Positions 1 to 4,677 of a DNA stretch of 4,677 nt are shown in pieces. The stretch lies in the IMG/VR virus record IMGVR_UViG_2648501186_000009; one strand, 5' to 3'. The notes beneath the pieces are model-generated. The model ran no database searches. It saw only the letters and a list, made by a program, of their open reading frames with translations, and was not told the origin of the DNA. The DNA comes from a virus. Lineage: Duplodnaviria; Heunggongvirae; Uroviricota; Caudoviricetes. Numbering within the stretch: the first letter of the stretch is position 1; each line of letters starts with the position of its first letter. The translations under genes and the position numbers were made by a program.

Positions 1-112
1 AACTGAAGTTGCCCTGAAAATGAAATTTTTTTGCACAACCGCAGAACTTTTCCGCAGGGCATCAGTCTTAATTAGTGCCACTGCTTTTCTTTGATGTCCC
101 CATTTTGTGGAG

Positions 113-155
113 CCCATCAACCCCGCCATTTCGGTTCAAGGTTGATGGGTTTTTT
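113..155 (+). terminator. Candidate rho-independent terminator in flanking (presumed host) DNA
   Basis: Perfect 10-bp inverted repeat cccatcaacc (113-122) / ggttgatggg (140-149) followed directly by TTTTTT (150-155). The loop is long (17 nt) but contains an internal ccg/cgg pair. No T-run in the minus-strand orientation, so it would terminate a plus-strand transcript arriving from upstream of the window. Confidence 0.4.
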
Positions 156-213
156 GTTGTCTGAAATTTATGCTGTTTAAAATCATGATGTTAGAAGCAC
201 TGTTTTTTAACGA

Positions 214-235
214 TGGCGACAAAATGGCGGCAGCG
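214..235. repeat. Direct repeat copy 1 (tggcgacaaaatggcggcagcg); putative att core at the ogr-proximal prophage junction (attR-like)
   Basis: Seen in sequence: 22 bp at 214-235 match 4638-4659 at 21/22 positions (single A/G difference at 224 vs 4648) in direct orientation. The copies sit immediately outside the ogr stop codon (236-238) and inside the 3' end of int, i.e. at the two extremities of the phage-like gene block. Confidence 0.7.
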
Positions 236-454
236 TCAAAGAGAGAGCGCCACCTGTCCTGATTTCATTGGATGCGGCTGAACCGGATTTGACTCTTTTG
301 GCGTTGCAATCGAACGAACAAAAGTTTCATGGGTAACAAAAGTATGGCTGCAGTTAATGTTCTGGCACTGGTTGTAACGCTCTTTGGTCAATGAAGATAC
401 CTGAAAACTGCTGCGAGTATGGGCGGCACTTCCACACAGTGGGCAAATCATCAT
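236..454 (-). CDS. ogr: Ogr/Delta-family zinc-finger late transcription activator
   Basis: The six-frame ORF 236..487 (-) contains MMICPLCGSAAHTRSS...KERYNQCQNINCSHTF, a C-x2-C...C-x4-C zinc-finger arrangement. The ...KERY.QCQN.NCS.TF... core matches what I recall of P2 Ogr. I place the start at the ATG at 454-452, which gives 72 aa (the size I recall for P2 Ogr) and has a GGGAGA Shine-Dalgarno 9 nt upstream. The longer ORF start at 487 has no such support. Confidence 0.85.
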   Translation of the reverse strand: MMICPLCGSAAHTRSSFQVSSLTKERYNQCQNINCSHTFVTHETFVRSIATPKESNPVQPHPMKSGQVALSL

Positions 455-491
455 TTTTCGAGCTCTCCCCATTTTTGCTAAATTCACAATA

Positions 492-519
492 ATGATACCG
501 CATTATTCCATTTTGCAAA
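492..519 (-). promoter_or_regulatory. Candidate sigma70 promoter for ogr (TTTGCA-N16-TATCAT on the minus strand)
   Basis: Read by eye on the reverse complement of the D-ogr intergenic region: -35-like TTTGCA (plus coords 519-514), 16-nt spacer, -10-like TATCAT (497-492). Moderate matches only. Confidence 0.3.
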
Positions 520-544
520 CTTAAAAGCTCTCCATTGCGAAGAA

Positions 545-1645
545 TCATTCCATTTCGAAATCATCAATCCTCACTTCAAGCTCCAGACTGGTCGTAAAAC
601 CGTTATCCGGGCTGACGGTATGCGTCAGAGTCGTAATGCTCCATTCCGCATCATCTATCGGCTGTTTAAAGCCACTGACTTTCACTGGCATTTCCGTGTA
701 GAGATCTGCCCGCCCTTCCGCCAGTTGTAGCGAGAATGACGCAACGCCGCGTTGCAGGCGTTCCCACTGCATTTTCGCTGCCCGTTCGGCGTTACTCCGA
801 TTAGCATAGGTGCGATTAAGTACCAGCACGTTTTCATCCGTCCCCACCAGGTAATCGCCCTGCTTCGCTTCCGGCTCTTTCTTCTGCTTCTTAGTCCTGC
901 GCTTACGCTTCACCGTAGTGCTTTCTTTCTTCGCGGGTTCGCGGGTATGCAACCAGCTGGCAATTACGCCCGTGTAAGCTCCGCGATCTGCCAGGGTAAA
1001 GCGGTGACTGTCGCCGTCCTTACGTGTGATAGTGATCACCGGCAGTGGTTTACCGCTGGCGCTTTTACCCTGACCCTGCCGGATGAATAACAGATTGCCA
1101 TTTTTCACCGATGCAATAGCACCGTACTGGCGCGCCAGCCGCATCAGAAAACTGCCGTCACTCTCATTAGTCTGGTCTATATGCTCCACGGGCTTATCCG
1201 ACAGGTCTTTACCCAGTGCCATCTTCAGCTTGTGCCGCGCGGCTATTTCCTTCACCACTTCCCCAACTGTGGTCTTGTGCCACGATTTTTCACGGCGGGT
1301 ATTCAGGGTTTCCCGAAAATCAGCACTTCGCGCCCGGATAGTCAGGCGGTCCGGTGCGCCAGTGTGTTCAATCTCGTCCACCGTGAATGCCCCTTTCGGG
1401 AAAAGCGGCTGCCCCTTCCAGCCCAGCGCCAGCGTAATGACCGCACCACGGCGCGGCAGCACGATTTTTCCGTCAGCGTCGTCCAGCTCCAGATCAAGCT
1501 GGTCCGCTTCAAAGCCCCGGTTATCCGTCAGCGTAAGCCCCATCAGGCGGTTGTCCAGCACAGTGGTTATATCCCTGCCTTCAATACTGATGCTGAATGC
1601 CGGAGTTTTGTTGCCTTTGTTAAGCAGTTCAGAGCTGAAATTCAC
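545..1645 (-). CDS. D: Phage tail protein D (P2 gpD / late control gene D family), apparently full length
   Basis: 366-aa ORF with segments characteristic of gpD as I recall it (TPAFS, LTLTDNRGFEADQLD, LPRRGAV, FTVDE..H.GAPD, IRARSADFR, HIDQ..ESD, ADRGAYTGV, a lysine/arginine-rich linker KRKRRTKKQKKEP, RGVA.FS..LA.GRAD.Y.E.PVKVSGFK, GFTTSLELEV). GTG start at 1645-1643 overlapping the upstream TGA stop (GTGA coupling), with GGGAGGG Shine-Dalgarno 8 nt upstream. Confidence 0.9.
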   Translation of the reverse strand: MNFSSELLNKGNKTPAFSISIEGRDITTVLDNRLMGLTLTDNRGFEADQLDLELDDADGKIVLPRRGAVITLALGWKGQPLFPKGAFTVDEIEHTGAPDRLTIRARSADFRETLNTRREKSWHKTTVGEVVKEIAARHKLKMALGKDLSDKPVEHIDQTNESDGSFLMRLARQYGAIASVKNGNLLFIRQGQGKSASGKPLPVITITRKDGDSHRFTLADRGAYTGVIASWLHTREPAKKESTTVKRKRRTKKQKKEPEAKQGDYLVGTDENVLVLNRTYANRSNAERAAKMQWERLQRGVASFSLQLAEGRADLYTEMPVKVSGFKQPIDDAEWSITTLTHTVSPDNGFTTSLELEVRIDDFEME

Positions 1646-2280
1646 GACAGCAGCCCTCCCACCGTTTTACTGATATCGCTTAAGGCAGACGTTGCCGTGT
1701 CCTGCAGATTATTCAGTTGAGTACTGAGATCACCGAACATATCGGACAGGGATTCATCCACCCGTTTTAGCGACAGGGTGAACTCAATCCTGCGCGGCAT
1801 ACCGTCGCGGAAAAACTCCGTTTTAGTCTGATTCAGTCCCTCAATCACATACATGCCGTAAATCGTGCCGCTACCTTCAATCAGGGGCCATGCTTTCCCC
1901 TGTTCTGCCATCTGCTCCAGTGCCAGCAACGACAGCCTGCCACCTGTTACCGCACCTGCAGCAACACGCCCGATCTCTGCGGTTGCACTCATGACGTAAT
2001 GTGGCAGTTTCTCTTTTGCCACCTCATTAATCGGTACACATGGCAGACAATGAATCTGTGCCAGAAAACCATCTACCAGCGTTGAATCTTCAGTCAGATC
2101 GGTAAGCAGCCAGATTTCTGGTGCGGTTAATAGATGAGGCTGAGCTGGGTTCAGCTTGTTCCGCAGAATCTGCGCATTCATGCCTGCACGTTCTGCCAGT
2201 TGCACCAGATTGTGGCGCAGTGCAAATGCACGACAGGCTTCATCAAAATGTGGATGTTTGGAAACTTGGTAATCAAACAT
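1642..2280 (-). CDS. Chimeric ORF: N-terminal ~110 aa of a phage 186 CII-type regulator fused in frame to the C-terminal ~100 aa of tail protein U (gpU); likely the prophage deletion junction
   Basis: N-terminal part [24 protein letters not shown]...LNPAQPH...[28 protein letters not shown] closely resembles the 186 CII sequence as I recall it. C-terminal part [31 protein letters not shown]...FF.DG.PR.I.FTLSL.RVDESL resembles P2 gpU. It sits directly upstream of D and is translationally coupled to it, as U is in P2. The switch in similarity occurs around residues 110-116 (nt ~1945-1955). Probable start is the ATG at 2280-2278 with an AGAGG Shine-Dalgarno; the ORF track's 2286 start is a TTG. 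Confidence 0.65.
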
Positions 2281-2312
2281 GGTCAATGCCTCTGATGTAT
2301 TTCAGAATCGAA

Positions 2313-2534
2313 CTAATTAAGGTTTAGATTGCATTCTGAAAGCGCATCAACGGTCATGGCTGCTATGTTGATCATCACTTTTTCGCGTTTTTTATCTTTG
2401 CGCAAACGGTGACGGATAAGGCGTCCGTCAGCCAACATGTCATTGATGGTATCGATGGACAGCCCTGTCAGCTCGCTATAGCGCTCAATAGTCACATGAG
2501 GCGTGGTAAGAGTGATTGAAATGTTAGGTCTCAT
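2313..2534 (-). CDS. apl: Apl/Cox-like small DNA-binding regulator (putative excisionase / switch regulator)
   Basis: 73-aa ORF in the first position of the operon divergent from cI and directly upstream of the CII-like gene, i.e. the position of apl in phage 186. Contains a helix-turn-helix-like stretch ([23 protein letters not shown]). ATG at 2534-2532 with GAGGAA Shine-Dalgarno 9 nt upstream. Family assignment rests on position, size and the HTH, not on recalled sequence identity. Confidence 0.55.
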
Positions 2535-2659
2535 GATGCAACATTCCTCGTTTAATGATGATTAATCAGGACGAATACGGATCGTTTGTATTTTGTGAAC
2601 ACCATAAACATACGATCGCACAATGAAATCGTCAAGATAAAAGTTCACTTGGAGTGACC
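2535..2659. promoter_or_regulatory. cI / apl intergenic switch region with candidate operator motifs
   Basis: 125-bp AT-rich region between the divergent cI and apl starts. Contains an inverted repeat ttaat-gatg-attaa (2552-2565) and two related motifs, atacggatcgtttgtat (2575-2591) and acatacgatcgcacaat (2608-2624), both carrying TACG(G)ATCG. The second overlaps the -10 of the candidate pR promoter. Confidence 0.4.
2607..2635 (-). promoter_or_regulatory. Candidate pR-type sigma70 promoter driving apl-cII' (TTGACG-N17-TATGTT on the minus strand)
   Basis: Reverse complement of 2601-2640 reads TTATCTTGACGATTTCATTGTGCGATCGTATGTTTATGGT: -35 TTGACG (plus 2635-2630), 17-nt spacer, -10 TATGTT (2612-2607). 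Predicted start near 2600, about 65 nt upstream of the apl ATG. Confidence 0.5.
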
Positions 2660-3229
2660 ATGAATTTGGAGAAAGGCGGACGAGGCGCTATAGAGCGCAT
2701 GGTAGAAGCTTATGGATTCAAAACTCGACAGGCGTTGTGCGATCATTTAGGAATCTCTAAAAGTACACTCGCCACACGCTACATGCGTGACTCATTCCCA
2801 GCAGAATGGGTAATCCAGTGCGCCCTTGAAACGGGCACCTCGCTTAATTGGCTCACAACCGGACATGGTTCAAAGCAAACTTCAGGTAATACAAATACTA
2901 TGGAAGTTGCTAAATATGTATTATCTGATGGTGCCTTGCGTGAAGACGGTTTTTATATTTTTGATAAGGGATTTCTACCCTCTACGTTTAAAAAACCTTT
3001 TGTCATCACAGATAACAATTCTGAATTTATTTGTGATAAAGAATTTGATGATATACGTGATGGTAAATGGGTAATAAGTATTGATGGCGAAGTAACGATC
3101 CGTGACATTACTCGTTTACCCGGTGGAAGAATCTTCGTCGAGGGTGGAAACAGAGCCTTCGAATGTAAGATAGAAGACATTGAAATAATTGGTAAAATTA
3201 TAAGTTTAACAGTCAAGTATGTTAAATAG
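2660..3229 (+). CDS. cI: Phage 186 CI-type immunity repressor
   Basis: 189 aa from the ATG at 2660 (the ORF track begins at an in-frame GTG at 2654). N-terminal region AYGF...L..H.GIS.S.L..RY.R...P.....QCALETG..L.WL.TG.G and C-terminal region (ITRLPGGRIFVEGGNRAFEC.I.DIE) both resemble the 186 CI repressor as I recall it; size also matches (~190 aa). Divergent from the apl-like gene, as in the 186 switch. GGAG 5 nt upstream of the ATG. Confidence 0.85.
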   Translation: MNLEKGGRGAIERMVEAYGFKTRQALCDHLGISKSTLATRYMRDSFPAEWVIQCALETGTSLNWLTTGHGSKQTSGNTNTMEVAKYVLSDGALREDGFYIFDKGFLPSTFKKPFVITDNNSEFICDKEFDDIRDGKWVISIDGEVTIRDITRLPGGRIFVEGGNRAFECKIEDIEIIGKIISLTVKYVK

Positions 3230-3244
3230 TACCGGGAGGAAACT

Positions 3245-3436
3245 ATGCTTGGTAAGGTATTTTTTGTGGTTTTGTCATGTTCTTTGTTATTAAACCCACT
3301 AACTACCTATGCTAGAAATTATCCCTGCTCAGGGAAAAAGGGAGGTGTTTCTCACTGTACCTCAGATGGCAAATTCGTTTGCAATGATGGAACTATTAGT
3401 AAATCCAAAAAAATCTGTACTAAAAACTCACGATAA
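3245..3436 (+). CDS. Small hypothetical protein (63 aa) with N-terminal signal peptide / hydrophobic segment and 4 cysteines; putative prophage moron
   Basis: ATG at 3245 preceded by GGGAGGA (3234-3240), starting 16 nt after the cI stop. N-terminus [23 protein letters not shown] is signal-peptide-like (possible signal peptidase I site after TYA, or a weak lipobox VLSC). The remainder is lysine-rich with Cys at 28, 38, 46 and 58. AT-rich relative to the D/U genes. No family recognised. Confidence 0.5.
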
Positions 3437-3624: not shown

Positions 3625-4677
3625 ATGGCAGTACGAAAACTCACCACAGGGAAATGGCTTTGCGAATGTTACCCCGCCGGACGAAGTGGGCGTCGTGTGC
3701 GTAAACAATTCGCCACCAAAGGCGAAGCTCTGGCTTTTGAGCGTCACACTATGGAAGAAACCGAATCAAAGCCATGGCTGGGCGAATCAGTGGATCGTCG
3801 AACCCTGAAAGACGTGGTTGAGCTATGGTTCAAACTACATGGTAAATCTCTGACTGCTGGGCAGCATGTCTATGACAAATTGCTGCTGATGGTTGGCGCT
3901 CTGGGCAATCCTCTTGCAACCGATCTCACCTCTAAAATGTTTGCCCACTATCGAGATAAACGCCTGACAGGCGAGATCTACTTCAGCGAGAAATGGAAGA
4001 AAGGAGCAAGCCCGGTCACCATTAACCTGGAGCAAAGCTATCTAAGTAGTGTTTTTAGCGAACTATCCCGTCTGGGCGAATGGTCGTATCCGAACCCACT
4101 GGAGAACATGCGAAAATTCACCATCGCAGAAAAAGAGATGGCATGGCTTACCCATGAGCAGATTGTTGAATTACTGGCTGATTGCAAACGTCAGGACCCA
4201 ATTCTAGCACTGGTAGTTAAGATATGCTTAAGCACAGGCGCACGCTGGCGAGAAGCCGTAAATCTTACTCGTTCACAGGTGACCAAATACCGAATTACCT
4301 TTGTAAGAACGAAGGGGAAGAAAAACAGAAGTATCCCTATCAGTAAAGAGCTTTACGAAGAGATCATGGCGCTTGATGGGTTCAATTTCTTCACAGACTG
4401 CTATTTTCAATTTTTATCCGTGATGGAAAAAACGTCTATCGTGCTCCCTCGCGGTCAACTCACACACGTTCTGCGCCATACGTTTGCGGCGCACTTCATG
4501 ATGTCGGGTGGAAACATTCTGGCCTTACAAAAAATTCTCGGACACCACGATATAAAAATGACTATGCGTTACGCACATCTGGCACCGGATCATCTGGAAA
4601 CGGCGCTCCGTTTCAATCCTCTGGCAACGCTGCCAAGTGGCGACAAAGTGGCGGCAGCGGTTGGCATTACCCCGTAA
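3625..4677 (+). CDS. int: Tyrosine site-specific integrase, P2/186 integrase family
   Basis: 350 aa from the ATG at 3625 (GGAGGG Shine-Dalgarno 8 nt upstream). MAVRKLTTGKW...YPAGRSGRRVRKQFATKGEALAFE has the same N-terminal architecture as P2 Int as I recall it. Catalytic-domain motifs are present: LSTGARWREA (Arg), LPRGQLTHVLRHTFAAHF (His-x-x-Arg), GHHDIKMTMRYAHL (Tyr nucleophile). The 52 codons upstream in the ORF track (3469-3624) have no integrase similarity and contain the candidate promoter. The 3' end overlaps the att core copy at 4638-4659; the stop is the last three bases of the window. Confidence 0.9.
   Translation: MAVRKLTTGKWLCECYPAGRSGRRVRKQFATKGEALAFERHTMEETESKPWLGESVDRRTLKDVVELWFKLHGKSLTAGQHVYDKLLLMVGALGNPLATDLTSKMFAHYRDKRLTGEIYFSEKWKKGASPVTINLEQSYLSSVFSELSRLGEWSYPNPLENMRKFTIAEKEMAWLTHEQIVELLADCKRQDPILALVVKICLSTGARWREAVNLTRSQVTKYRITFVRTKGKKNRSIPISKELYEEIMALDGFNFFTDCYFQFLSVMEKTSIVLPRGQLTHVLRHTFAAHFMMSGGNILALQKILGHHDIKMTMRYAHLAPDHLETALRFNPLATLPSGDKVAAAVGITP
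4638..4659. repeat. Direct repeat copy 2 (tggcgacaaagtggcggcagcg); putative att core at the int-proximal prophage junction (attL-like)
   Basis: 21/22 identity to 214-235 in direct orientation. Lies within the last 40 nt of the int coding sequence. Confidence 0.7.

Follow-up and report, generated by a model that had tools for sequence, protein, structure and literature searches.

Cryptic P2-family remnants with ogr and, in many cases, a portion of D have been familiar since the Escherichia coli K-12 remnant was described, reportedly by Barreiro and Haggard-Ljungquist in 1992. That element, the cryptic prophage PR-X (cyaR, ogrK, yegZ), lies at the 3′ end of a small RNA gene, and its K-12 record shows an intact 72-aa ogr beside the attachment site with D sequence adjoining. 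Slettan et al. reportedly found in 1992 that the ogr genes of K-12 and B are functional. Ogr/Delta activators act via the RNA polymerase alpha subunit at promoters with a TGT-N12-ACA element near −55. In coliphage 186, the genes run in the order D, B/ogr, att, int, cI, apl, cII. Here we analyze a 4,677-nt stretch of DNA (hereafter the window) that shares this order and the same protein families and, as in PR-X, places an intact ogr between an attachment site and D sequence.

A defective mini-prophage at the 3′ end of rybB

The window matches the chromosome of E. coli ETEC1706 at 100% identity, between ybjL/rybB and rcdA. Pfam and PHROGs domain calls, obtained for every ORF, together with the host flank revealed that its content is a defective P2/186-like mini-prophage at the 3′ end of the small RNA gene rybB. 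This prophage leftover of about 4.6 kb is arranged as attL, ogr, D, an in-frame cII′::′U chimera, apl, cI, orf63 and int, with attR just outside the window. Attachment sites are present at both ends, and replication, virion and lysis genes are absent. The first-pass annotation had described ogr and D as an orphan pair, having overlooked cII′::′U, apl, cI, int, att and the rybB insertion site; the pair is in fact flanked by apl, cI, int and both attachment sites. The left end carries the following features.

80..158, plus strand: host small RNA gene rybB (Rfam RF00110, 105.3 bits, full length)
141..172, no strand: attL core region, with ATGGGTTTTTTGTT common to attB, then phage-type GTCTGAAATTTAT
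214..235, no strand: left copy of a 22-nt direct repeat, TGGCGACAAAATGGCGGCAGCG (repeat search, 95% identical to 4638-4659)

The rybB sequence equals that of K-12 as far as GGGTTTTTTGTT, and the attachment core begins, on its left side, within its terminator and T-run. We placed the core by aligning three sequences, namely the empty K-12 site, the left end of the window and the right flank in ETEC1706, where attR lies approximately 80-110 bp past the window end. The 22-nt repeat (214-235 and 4638-4659) was rejected as the core, given that the empty K-12 site puts the latter in the rybB terminator region. By analogy with 186, which has annotated arm-type Int sites on both sides of attP, the repeat is probably an Int arm-type site.

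The lysogeny module occupies the right half of the element.

2313..2534, minus strand: apl, Cox-like excisionase/repressor, 73 aa (phrog_575, E = 6e-31)
2607..2635, minus strand: candidate early lytic promoter pR, TTGACG-N17-TATGTT (promoter scan; position matches 186 pR)
2660..3229, plus strand: cI, 186-type immunity repressor, 189 aa, intact (PF07022, PF16452; WP_001047327.1)
3245..3436, plus strand: orf63, small Cys-rich protein, accessory gene between cI and int (phrog_6000)
3625..4677, plus strand: int, tyrosine integrase, 350 aa, apparently intact (PF24624, PF00589; WP_000290953.1)

Apl (WP_001247707.1) is the same protein in complete prophages, Orf63 has a signal-peptide-like N-terminus and is named "YdcA family protein" in relatives, and the 22-nt repeat has its right copy (4638-4659) within int. 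Full-length CI, Apl and Int are encoded, and the CII reading frame passes into U after codon 111 of 169; judged from its sequence, the 186-type module is complete in its maintenance part and broken in its establishment part. Candidate pR reads into apl, cII′::′U, D and ogr, and no terminator-like site was found on the minus strand from pR to ogr. This operon would stay silent in the lysogen, because CI would repress pR and the deletion has removed the SOS antirepressor gene that the element once had. CI should confer immunity to homo-immune phages, and Int together with Apl may still permit excision.

A probable single deletion between U and cII

The two halves of the element meet in a chimeric reading frame.

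1642..2286, minus strand: chimeric ORF cII′::′U, 212 aa from ATG 2280 (PF06892, CII, and PF06995, GpU, in one ORF; PHROGs 101 and 76)
1947..1950, no strand: deletion junction U/cII, 1947/1948, with 2-bp TA microhomology at 1948-1949

The chimera consists of cII codons 1-111 (2280 down to 1948) followed in frame by the final ~101 U codons (1949 down to 1645), and PGAP annotates it as two pseudogene fragments. The earlier statement that every other late gene is gone was thus too broad, as this part of the tail gene U (1645-1949) remains, fused to cII. We mapped the junction base by base against the intact U of the SL124 prophage and the intact cII of HS. Relative to the SL124 prophage, ~28.7 kb is absent from the ETEC1706 element; the deletion removed most tail genes, the head, lysis and replication genes, fil and the 3′ end of cII, and cos (at ~19.65 kb of the SL124 prophage) falls within the deleted interval. 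A junction-spanning query matched in one piece solely in ETEC1706, 1 of 5,426 complete E. coli genomes.

These observations suggest the following history. A phage of the P2 family whose switch (CI, Apl, CII) is of the 186 type would have entered the E. coli chromosome at the 3′ end of rybB, and one illegitimate deletion of ~28.7 kb in the ETEC1706 lineage would have joined U to cII at the TA microhomology. Lost with that interval would have been cos, tum, fil, the genes for head, lysis and replication and most of those for the tail, leaving both prophage ends: attL-ogr-D-′U on the left and cII′-apl-cI-orf63-int-attR on the right. We assign a probability of roughly 0.85 to this reading as a whole, namely that the mini-prophage arose by one recent, strain-specific deletion, and that ogr and D would be intact by recency rather than by preservation.

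A helper-dependent mobile element of the P4-like or cos-island-like kind would present a superficially similar picture: int, apl, both attachment sites and an Ogr/Delta-family activator are kept, Delta alone among the P4 genes has homologues in P2 (PMC8628076), and some related multi-deletion remnants keep a cos-proximal fragment. Set against the P4-like satellite core (psu, sid, delta, alpha primase-helicase, epsilon, alpA, cos), however, the element offers just an Ogr/Delta homologue, in addition to its integrase; by Pfam and PHROGs every ORF belongs to a P2/186 gene or gene fragment, with no homologue of psu, sid, alpha or epsilon. Moreover, cos was lost with the deleted interval, the join is marked by a chimeric pseudogene, and the U/cII junction occurs in one strain alone. 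A satellite-like origin is therefore highly improbable, and the element is best regarded as the debris of a deleted prophage.

Age of the deletion and fate of ogr and D in sister remnants

Genome comparison identified a complete prophage of ~33 kb at the same site in SL124, which encodes Ogr and D proteins identical to the window's and whose ogr-D-U′ DNA is 99.7% identical. The ogr-D-U module recurs at 95-99% identity in 928 genomes. "Recent" refers to comparison with the available genomes, among which the exact parent is absent: the left part is closest to SL124, and the right part is 100% identical to other strains. Since the junction occurs in one strain and a complete prophage at this locus encodes the very same Ogr and D, their intactness most likely reflects the recency of the deletion and not selection. 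The claim that the two genes had been retained, in the sense of long-term keeping, finds no support in this comparison, which leaves no period over which decay would have been withstood.

Remnants at the rybB locus of other strains show how D fares after deletion: it is cut to 756, 462, 324 or 117 nt, and is truncated or lost in most of them, which argues against its preservation. Ogr, in turn, is identical and intact in each of the 11 E. coli strains for which a remnant at rybB was examined, a set gathered with an ogr-containing query and thus composed of ogr-bearing remnants. Taken at face value, the Ogr pattern would fit domestication, in which the host keeps ogr, and perhaps D, as useful genes, with Ogr firing the late genes of invading P2-like phages early or mobilizing satellites and gpD moonlighting in a VgrG-like role; K-12 likewise keeps ogrK beside cyaR, and PGAP labels the truncated D fragments "VgrG/Pvc8 family". 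However, ogr is a 219-bp target beside att, so its survival across nine deletions is unremarkable, and ogr-less remnants fall outside the set by the way in which it was found. The junction occurs in a single strain and its genes do not differ from their counterparts in a complete prophage, so that they carry no signal from which purifying selection could be judged, and the state of D in most sister remnants points the other way. Domestication thus appears improbable, and a recent deletion is the preferred explanation.

Ogr is intact and without a target in cis

236..454, minus strand: ogr, Ogr/Delta zinc-finger late-gene activator, intact, 72 aa (PF04606, phrog_603)

The earlier call of an intact zinc-finger Ogr is borne out by the domain scores, which reach 77.5 bits against PF04606 (cut-off 26.3) and E = 1.5e-28 against phrog_603. 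All four zinc cysteines of its C-X2-C-X22-C-X4-C finger (C4, C7, C30 and C35) align with those of P2 Ogr and 186 B, to which the protein is 54-55% identical, and the gene sits between D and the attL region in a layout like that of 186 and P2. The extent first given, 236-487, corresponds to a mechanical 83-aa ORF opening with GTG; the gene itself is real, and both PGAP and the homologues place its start at ATG 454, which gives the 72-aa product. This protein (WP_000972391.1) is identical in the complete SL124 prophage, and its exact sequence occurs on at least 1,000 contigs. In the alignment, position 42 is His, with Tyr in P2 and Met in 186; at this position, P2 ogr52 is reported to suppress rpoA109.

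No TGT-N12-ACA element of the Ogr-type late promoter was found within the window; the parent prophage carries one, TGTGTGAATAACGGTACA, upstream of the sheath gene. With no such element left in the remnant, a 72-aa Ogr would meet no target inside it if the ogr promoter were active, and any action must be in trans. Possible targets are late promoters brought in by a P2-like phage or a P4-like satellite. By analogy, the resident Ogr could plausibly act on late promoters in this way, and the proposal of trans-activation made in the first-pass annotation is possible in principle, with a precedent in ogrK and the D fragment yegZ of K-12 PR-X.

D is intact but lacks a tail to join

545..1645, minus strand: D, gpD tail/baseplate-hub protein, intact, 366 aa (PF05954, phrog_52)

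D scores 95.7 bits against PF05954 and E = 1.5e-175 against phrog_52 ("tail protein") over residues 1-366, in agreement with its initial description as an intact gpD. It is 21-23 aa shorter than D of P2 and 186 owing to a gap in the Lys-rich linker, and the 1,101-nt gene has equal length in phage KP12. The protein (WP_046788620.1) is identical in the complete SL124 prophage, and its exact sequence occurs on 269 contigs. That D is present through proximity to the prophage end was correctly anticipated: the gene lies outside the deleted interval.

The GTG start of D overlaps the stop of the upstream chimera (GTGA), so that D would be translationally coupled to cII′::′U, and it could be produced only by read-through from the CI-controlled early promoter pR. 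The contractile-tail context is absent, the 3′ fragment of U being the sole other tail gene sequence; D is a gpD family member that cannot carry out its structural role here. It would appear only after CI inactivation, with no tail to join.

A candidate ogr promoter and its possible control by CI

492..519, minus strand: candidate ogr promoter, TTTGCA-N16-TATCAT (promoter scan, 9/12 matches)

The promoter noted earlier in the D-ogr spacer is indeed present (519..492), and the window shows no excess of such sites (5 promoter-like sites versus 7.1 expected by chance). It is a modest match, with support from its position and from the −10 hexamer TATCAT, which it shares with the annotated 186 pB; ogr may thus have a sigma-70-like promoter of its own.

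The same comparison raises the question of whether resident CI represses this promoter directly, as in 186, leaving Ogr intact but silent unless CI is removed. The 186 record places two CI sites over pB with the annotation "repressed by CI", and it lists pR with CI sites as well. Besides the common −10 sequence, an inverted repeat, AATAATG-N6-CATTATT (507..488), straddles the −10 of the candidate ogr promoter, a GTGAAT half-site like those of the 186 pB operators lies just downstream of it, and cI is intact in the mini-prophage. However, CI of the window is just 31-32% identical to 186 CI, and the D-ogr spacer is nearly identical in L6-21 and phage KP12, whose CI proteins are 52-53% identical to that of the window; the spacer hence does not co-vary with immunity type. 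Furthermore, no motif of at least 8 nt is common to the pR region and the ogr promoter besides one at start codons. Direct repression of ogr by CI is consequently doubtful.

A recurrent breakpoint in cII

Comparison of remnants in complete genomes revealed that the same cII nucleotide is broken in 6 of 9 distinct junctions, with a different partner each time, and approximately nine further distinct junctions on metagenome and viral contigs share this break nucleotide. On the plus strand, the break reads ...CGCCAGA/TACCGCACC... (window 1947/1948, cII codon 111). Its signature is a fixed minus-strand 3′ end, ...GGTGCGGTA-3′, joined via terminal TA or GGTA-like microhomology, and two more recurrent break sites in the same prophage have the motif CCAG[AT][CT]AC[CG]G. 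This recurrence implies that the deletion is not a fully random event. Tentatively, and at odds somewhat below even, we propose that a sequence-determined break in cII, reused in at least 15 independent remnants, reflects an undescribed site-specific DNA-processing step such as a nick, a replication stop or a nuclease site.

Several candidate causes were considered and set aside. A P2/186-type replication origin was rejected, as the ori sequences of 186, P2 and SL124 are unlike the site. The 34.7-kb prophage has no exact Chi; a Chi-like octamer with two mismatches, GCAGGTGC, stops 4 nt 5′ of the cII break on the correct strand, and Chi was not adopted as the cause because several nearby one-mismatch sites are no hot spots. 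Selection for in-frame CII fusions is not supported, as just 4 of 8 are in frame. Comparison by eye gave no convincing match to invertase sites of the Gin/Hin type, Xer/dif-like arms, Type IIS or Type III restriction sites or a Vsr site, and an Int pseudo-core (TTTACAT plus 7 nt in common) was likewise unconvincing. A pattern scan of genome contigs returned two matches, both by chance, in unrelated MAGs; the best 120 matches to intact CII protein were full-length proteins, with no truncated fusions; and no junction with the GTG or GTT allele of codon 111 was found, in a comparison of low statistical power.

If such a step exists, it would repeatedly turn 186-like prophages into non-lethal mini-prophages with immunity, integrase and ogr. 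Given a mechanistic cause for the exact reuse of one cII position, prophage inactivation in the P2/186-like family would be in part set by the sequence and not left to chance, with a bearing on the frequency of immune, non-inducible remnants in bacteria. The ogr/D remnant itself, a recent deletion in a single strain, matters little, and the cII breakpoint, although a by-product of this analysis, may outweigh it. The element nonetheless provides a clean, fully mapped example, with both junction parents available, an in-frame cII′::′U chimera, and D and ogr rewired under pR.

Comparison with known systems

The complete rybB-rcdA prophages of SL124 and HS share the insertion site and nearly identical DNA at both ends with the mini-prophage, and SL124 additionally shares identical Ogr, D and Apl proteins. 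These prophages differ in keeping the ~28.7 kb and in having an Int of 343 aa followed by an extra 270-nt ORF. Relative to coliphage 186, about 85% of the genome is deleted. The N-terminal part of CII is 71% identical, Int 56%, D 56% and B/Ogr 54%, and both activator promoters have the −10 sequence TATCAT; in contrast, CI is just 32% identical, and att lies at tRNA-Ile in 186 versus rybB here. With P2 Ogr and P4 Delta, the window protein shares the C-X2-C-X22-C-X4-C zinc finger (PF04606), although identity to P2 Ogr is only 55% and the window is without a late promoter in cis. PR-X, for its part, spans 629 bp with only a 219-nt D fragment and without int, cI and apl, whereas the window element, at rybB instead of cyaR, comprises 4.6 kb with a full D and a lysogeny module.

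Source and gene content of the remnant

The window matches the chromosome of E. coli ETEC1706, an isolate from pig faeces in Belgium, at 100% over 4677 bases (NZ_CP122904.1, 3183862-3188538), with ybjL as host neighbour on one side and rcdA on the other. It carries the following features:

80-158: rybB, host small RNA gene (Rfam, 105 bits)
236-454, minus strand: ogr
545-1645, minus strand: D
1642-2286, minus strand: single ORF carrying CII and GpU domains
2313-2534, minus strand: apl, Cox-like excisionase gene
2660-3229, plus strand: cI, two-domain, 186-type
3245-3436, plus strand: small YdcA-family ORF
3625-4677, plus strand: int, tyrosine integrase gene

The ORF at 3245-3436, between cI and int, encodes a Cys-rich protein (YdcA family, phrog_6000) whose N-terminus resembles a signal peptide; in relatives, this slot holds other cargo, namely DUF4041, a KAP NTPase, a second CI-like gene or a Panacea domain protein. 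The host gene ybjL, which adjoins rybB just upstream of the window (4316-6000 of the ETEC1706 locus, L001), is annotated as frameshifted in ETEC1706.

Integrity of ogr and D

Ogr comprises 72 aa from ATG 454; an 83-aa GTG ORF was rejected as a mechanical maximum only. In alignment, C4, C7, C30 and C35 match cysteines of P2 Ogr and 186 B, with overall identities of 55% and 54%, respectively. D comprises 366 aa; the P2 and 186 D proteins have 17 more residues in a Lys-rich linker, and the D gene of Klebsiella phage KP12 equals that of the window in length. Both proteins share their accessions (Ogr, WP_000972391.1; D, WP_046788620.1) with the complete prophage (~33 kb) that strain SL124 carries at this locus, and the exact sequences occur in public data on at least 1000 contigs (Ogr) and 269 contigs (D). 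The shared accessions and numerous public copies indicate that both genes are intact by the best available standard, in agreement with the first-pass annotation. Its further statement that every other late gene is gone holds for most of them, but not for U, whose last ~101 codons are still present, and its term "orphan" for ogr is wrong, as a lysogeny module (apl, cI, int) also lies in the window. The earlier observation was largely correct; its framing was not.

A recent, strain-specific deletion

Comparing the window base by base with two intact genes, U from SL124 and cII from HS, placed the U/cII junction, which has a TA overlap of 2 bp, at 1947/1948-1950; the deleted DNA spans 2126-30838 in SL124 prophage coordinates (~28.7 kb). 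The resulting cII'::'U fusion is in frame (212 aa from ATG 2280) and joins CII(1-111) to the C-terminal ~101 aa of U. Its stop codon overlaps the GTG start of D (GTGA), so that translational coupling to D is kept. Truncation of 186 CII at residue 145 stabilises the protein and leaves it active (PMC7708051).

A 301-bp junction-spanning query, run against 5426 complete E. coli genomes, gave an unbroken match in ETEC1706 alone. The ogr-D-U' DNA shares 99.7% identity with SL124, and the ogr-D-U module is found at 95-99% identity in 928 genomes. Several further E. coli chromosomes match the right-hand part of the window at 99.9-100% identity; the two inspected at the locus, HS and SL124, both harbor a complete prophage. 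A junction confined to ETEC1706, flanked by ends nearly identical to prophage DNA of other strains, marks the deletion as recent and strain-specific, and the intact genes require no appeal to selection.

Sister remnants and retention of ogr

At this locus, further complete genomes harbor versions of the prophage with other deletions.

Portion of D retained in sister remnants
LR-27, BE2-5, D97-1: whole gene
A134_1EC, L6-21: 756 nt
EC06: 756 nt, features as in A134_1EC/L6-21 (similarity search)
ET896: 462 nt
AF44: 324 nt
ZYB62, E3: 117 nt

The Ogr protein is identical in all 10 strains inspected, a set collected with a query that contained ogr; because of this query, and because ogr is a small target beside att, shared Ogr permits no inference on selection.

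Several multiply deleted remnants retain a short cos-region fragment (SL124 prophage ~19.2-19.85 kb; locus L014, 3353-3726, and loci L027, L028 and L029), in one case inverted with TA on either side; cos is absent from the window's remnant. In FDAARGOS_1248 (locus L015), successive prophage copies meet int to ogr, an arrangement compatible with a tandem double lysogen of this phage family, and CFSAN061772 (hit H5) displays the same match pattern in the similarity search.

Recurrent breakage within cII

The ogr/D finding itself is of low interest; the recurrent cII breakpoint is the sole point deserving follow-up. In complete genomes, the cII-side break falls at the same nucleotide in 6 of 9 distinct junctions, the remaining three ending at other positions.

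Partners joined at the shared cII nucleotide
Window: U
LR-27: T
A134/ET896/L6-21 group: mid D
E3: 3' end of D
BE2-5: inverted 374-bp cos-proximal fragment
PK5: different phage, inserted at ssrA

Pattern scans revealed same-position breaks with further partners on three metagenome contigs, and on seven IMG/VR contigs versus at least 117 intact copies; among the seven, a single contig repeats a metagenome junction. This amounts to ~15 independent remnants with different partners, including ~9 distinct junctions beyond the complete genomes. Scans at two control positions, offset by 30 and 60 nt, yielded no junctions. The shared position is window 1947-1950 (cII codon 111); the loci concerned also include L004 (~9001), L005, L010-L014, L019, L022-L024, L026-L029, L031, L035 and L038.

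The breakpoint reads AGA/TACCGCACC, with TACCGCACC the constant start of the retained side. TA microhomology is present in 8 of 11 junctions with a known parent, and partner sites tend towards TA-N-C, a pattern compatible with a fixed 3' end on the minus strand (...GGTA-3') that anneals. Alleles of codon 111 read GTA, GTG or GTT; the broken copies found are GTA alleles only, at low statistical power.

Further recurrent break sites (SL124 prophage coordinates; loci L010, L012, L014, L017, L023, L028)
3226-3237: gene T
837-841: 3' end of D, break point in three different junctions
30689-30695: cII nt ~476

CCAG[AT][CT]AC[CG]G is common to the main cII site, the T site and the second cII site; this pattern, derived post hoc, occurs four times versus 0.6 expected in 34.7 kb. 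No tie was found between the hot spot and a replication origin, Chi, a known recombinase or restriction site, or in-frame selection; exact Chi (GCTGGTGG) is absent from both strands of the whole SL124 prophage (34.7 kb).

Candidate promoters and potential trans action

The proposed promoter TTTGCA-N16-TATCAT is present (519..492, minus strand), but promoter-like sites in the window do not exceed chance (5 versus 7.1 expected); its credibility derives from its position and from its -10 TATCAT, the latter common to annotated 186 pB. A perfect 7-bp inverted repeat, AATAATG-N6-CATTATT (488-507), lies over this -10, and is followed by a GTGAAT half-site resembling 186 pB operators. In 186, pB is repressed by CI; CI control of the present candidate is unproven, as the D-ogr spacer is near-identical in relatives whose CI is only 52% identical and no motif common to the spacer and the pR region was found.

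From the pR candidate (2635..2607) to ogr, the minus strand shows no terminator-like site, giving apl, cII'::'U, D and ogr the appearance of a single operon that would be driven by pR and kept off by CI; Ogr may additionally come from its own promoter. With no terminator predicted downstream of ogr, transcripts from ogr or pR would continue into rybB in antisense orientation. Self-induction is unlikely, given that the region bearing tum in 186 is deleted.

TGT-N12-ACA is absent from the window (0 versus 1.5 expected), leaving Ogr without a cis target and D without a late promoter; the parent prophage carries such an element, TGTGTGAATAACGGTACA, upstream of the sheath gene. Ogr could plausibly trans-activate P2-like phages or P4-like satellites that enter the cell, which would not be new. 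Delta and Ogr both promote P2 and P4 late gene expression (PMC8628076).

Attachment site and relation to known prophages

Comparison of the empty K-12 site, the left end of the window and the ETEC1706 right flank defined a common att core, ATGGGTTTTTTGTT, corresponding to the 3' half of the rybB terminator and its T-run; sequence downstream is replaced by phage-supplied DNA, and attR lies ~80-110 bp past the window. The prophage is inserted in the terminator/T-run of the sigma-E-dependent sRNA gene rybB (region 80-172), whose 3' end is regenerated. A 22-nt repeat on both sides of the core (214-235 and 4638-4659) probably represents a pair of Int arm-type sites; its right copy sits within the int 3' end. 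In HS and SL124, Int is 343 aa long and an additional 270-nt ORF (WP_001032044.1) precedes the repeat (locus L004, 11600-12250), whereas ETEC1706 encodes a 350-aa Int and lacks this ORF.

Read across its attachment site, coliphage 186 has the same gene order (D, B/ogr, att, int, cI, apl, cII), but nearly all of its genes between U and cII are absent from the window. The K-12 cryptic prophage PR-X presents the same architecture at another sRNA gene (cyaR, ogrK and yegZ, a D fragment). The feature adds a new single-strain case to a well-known class, that of defective P2/186-like prophages with ogr beside att.
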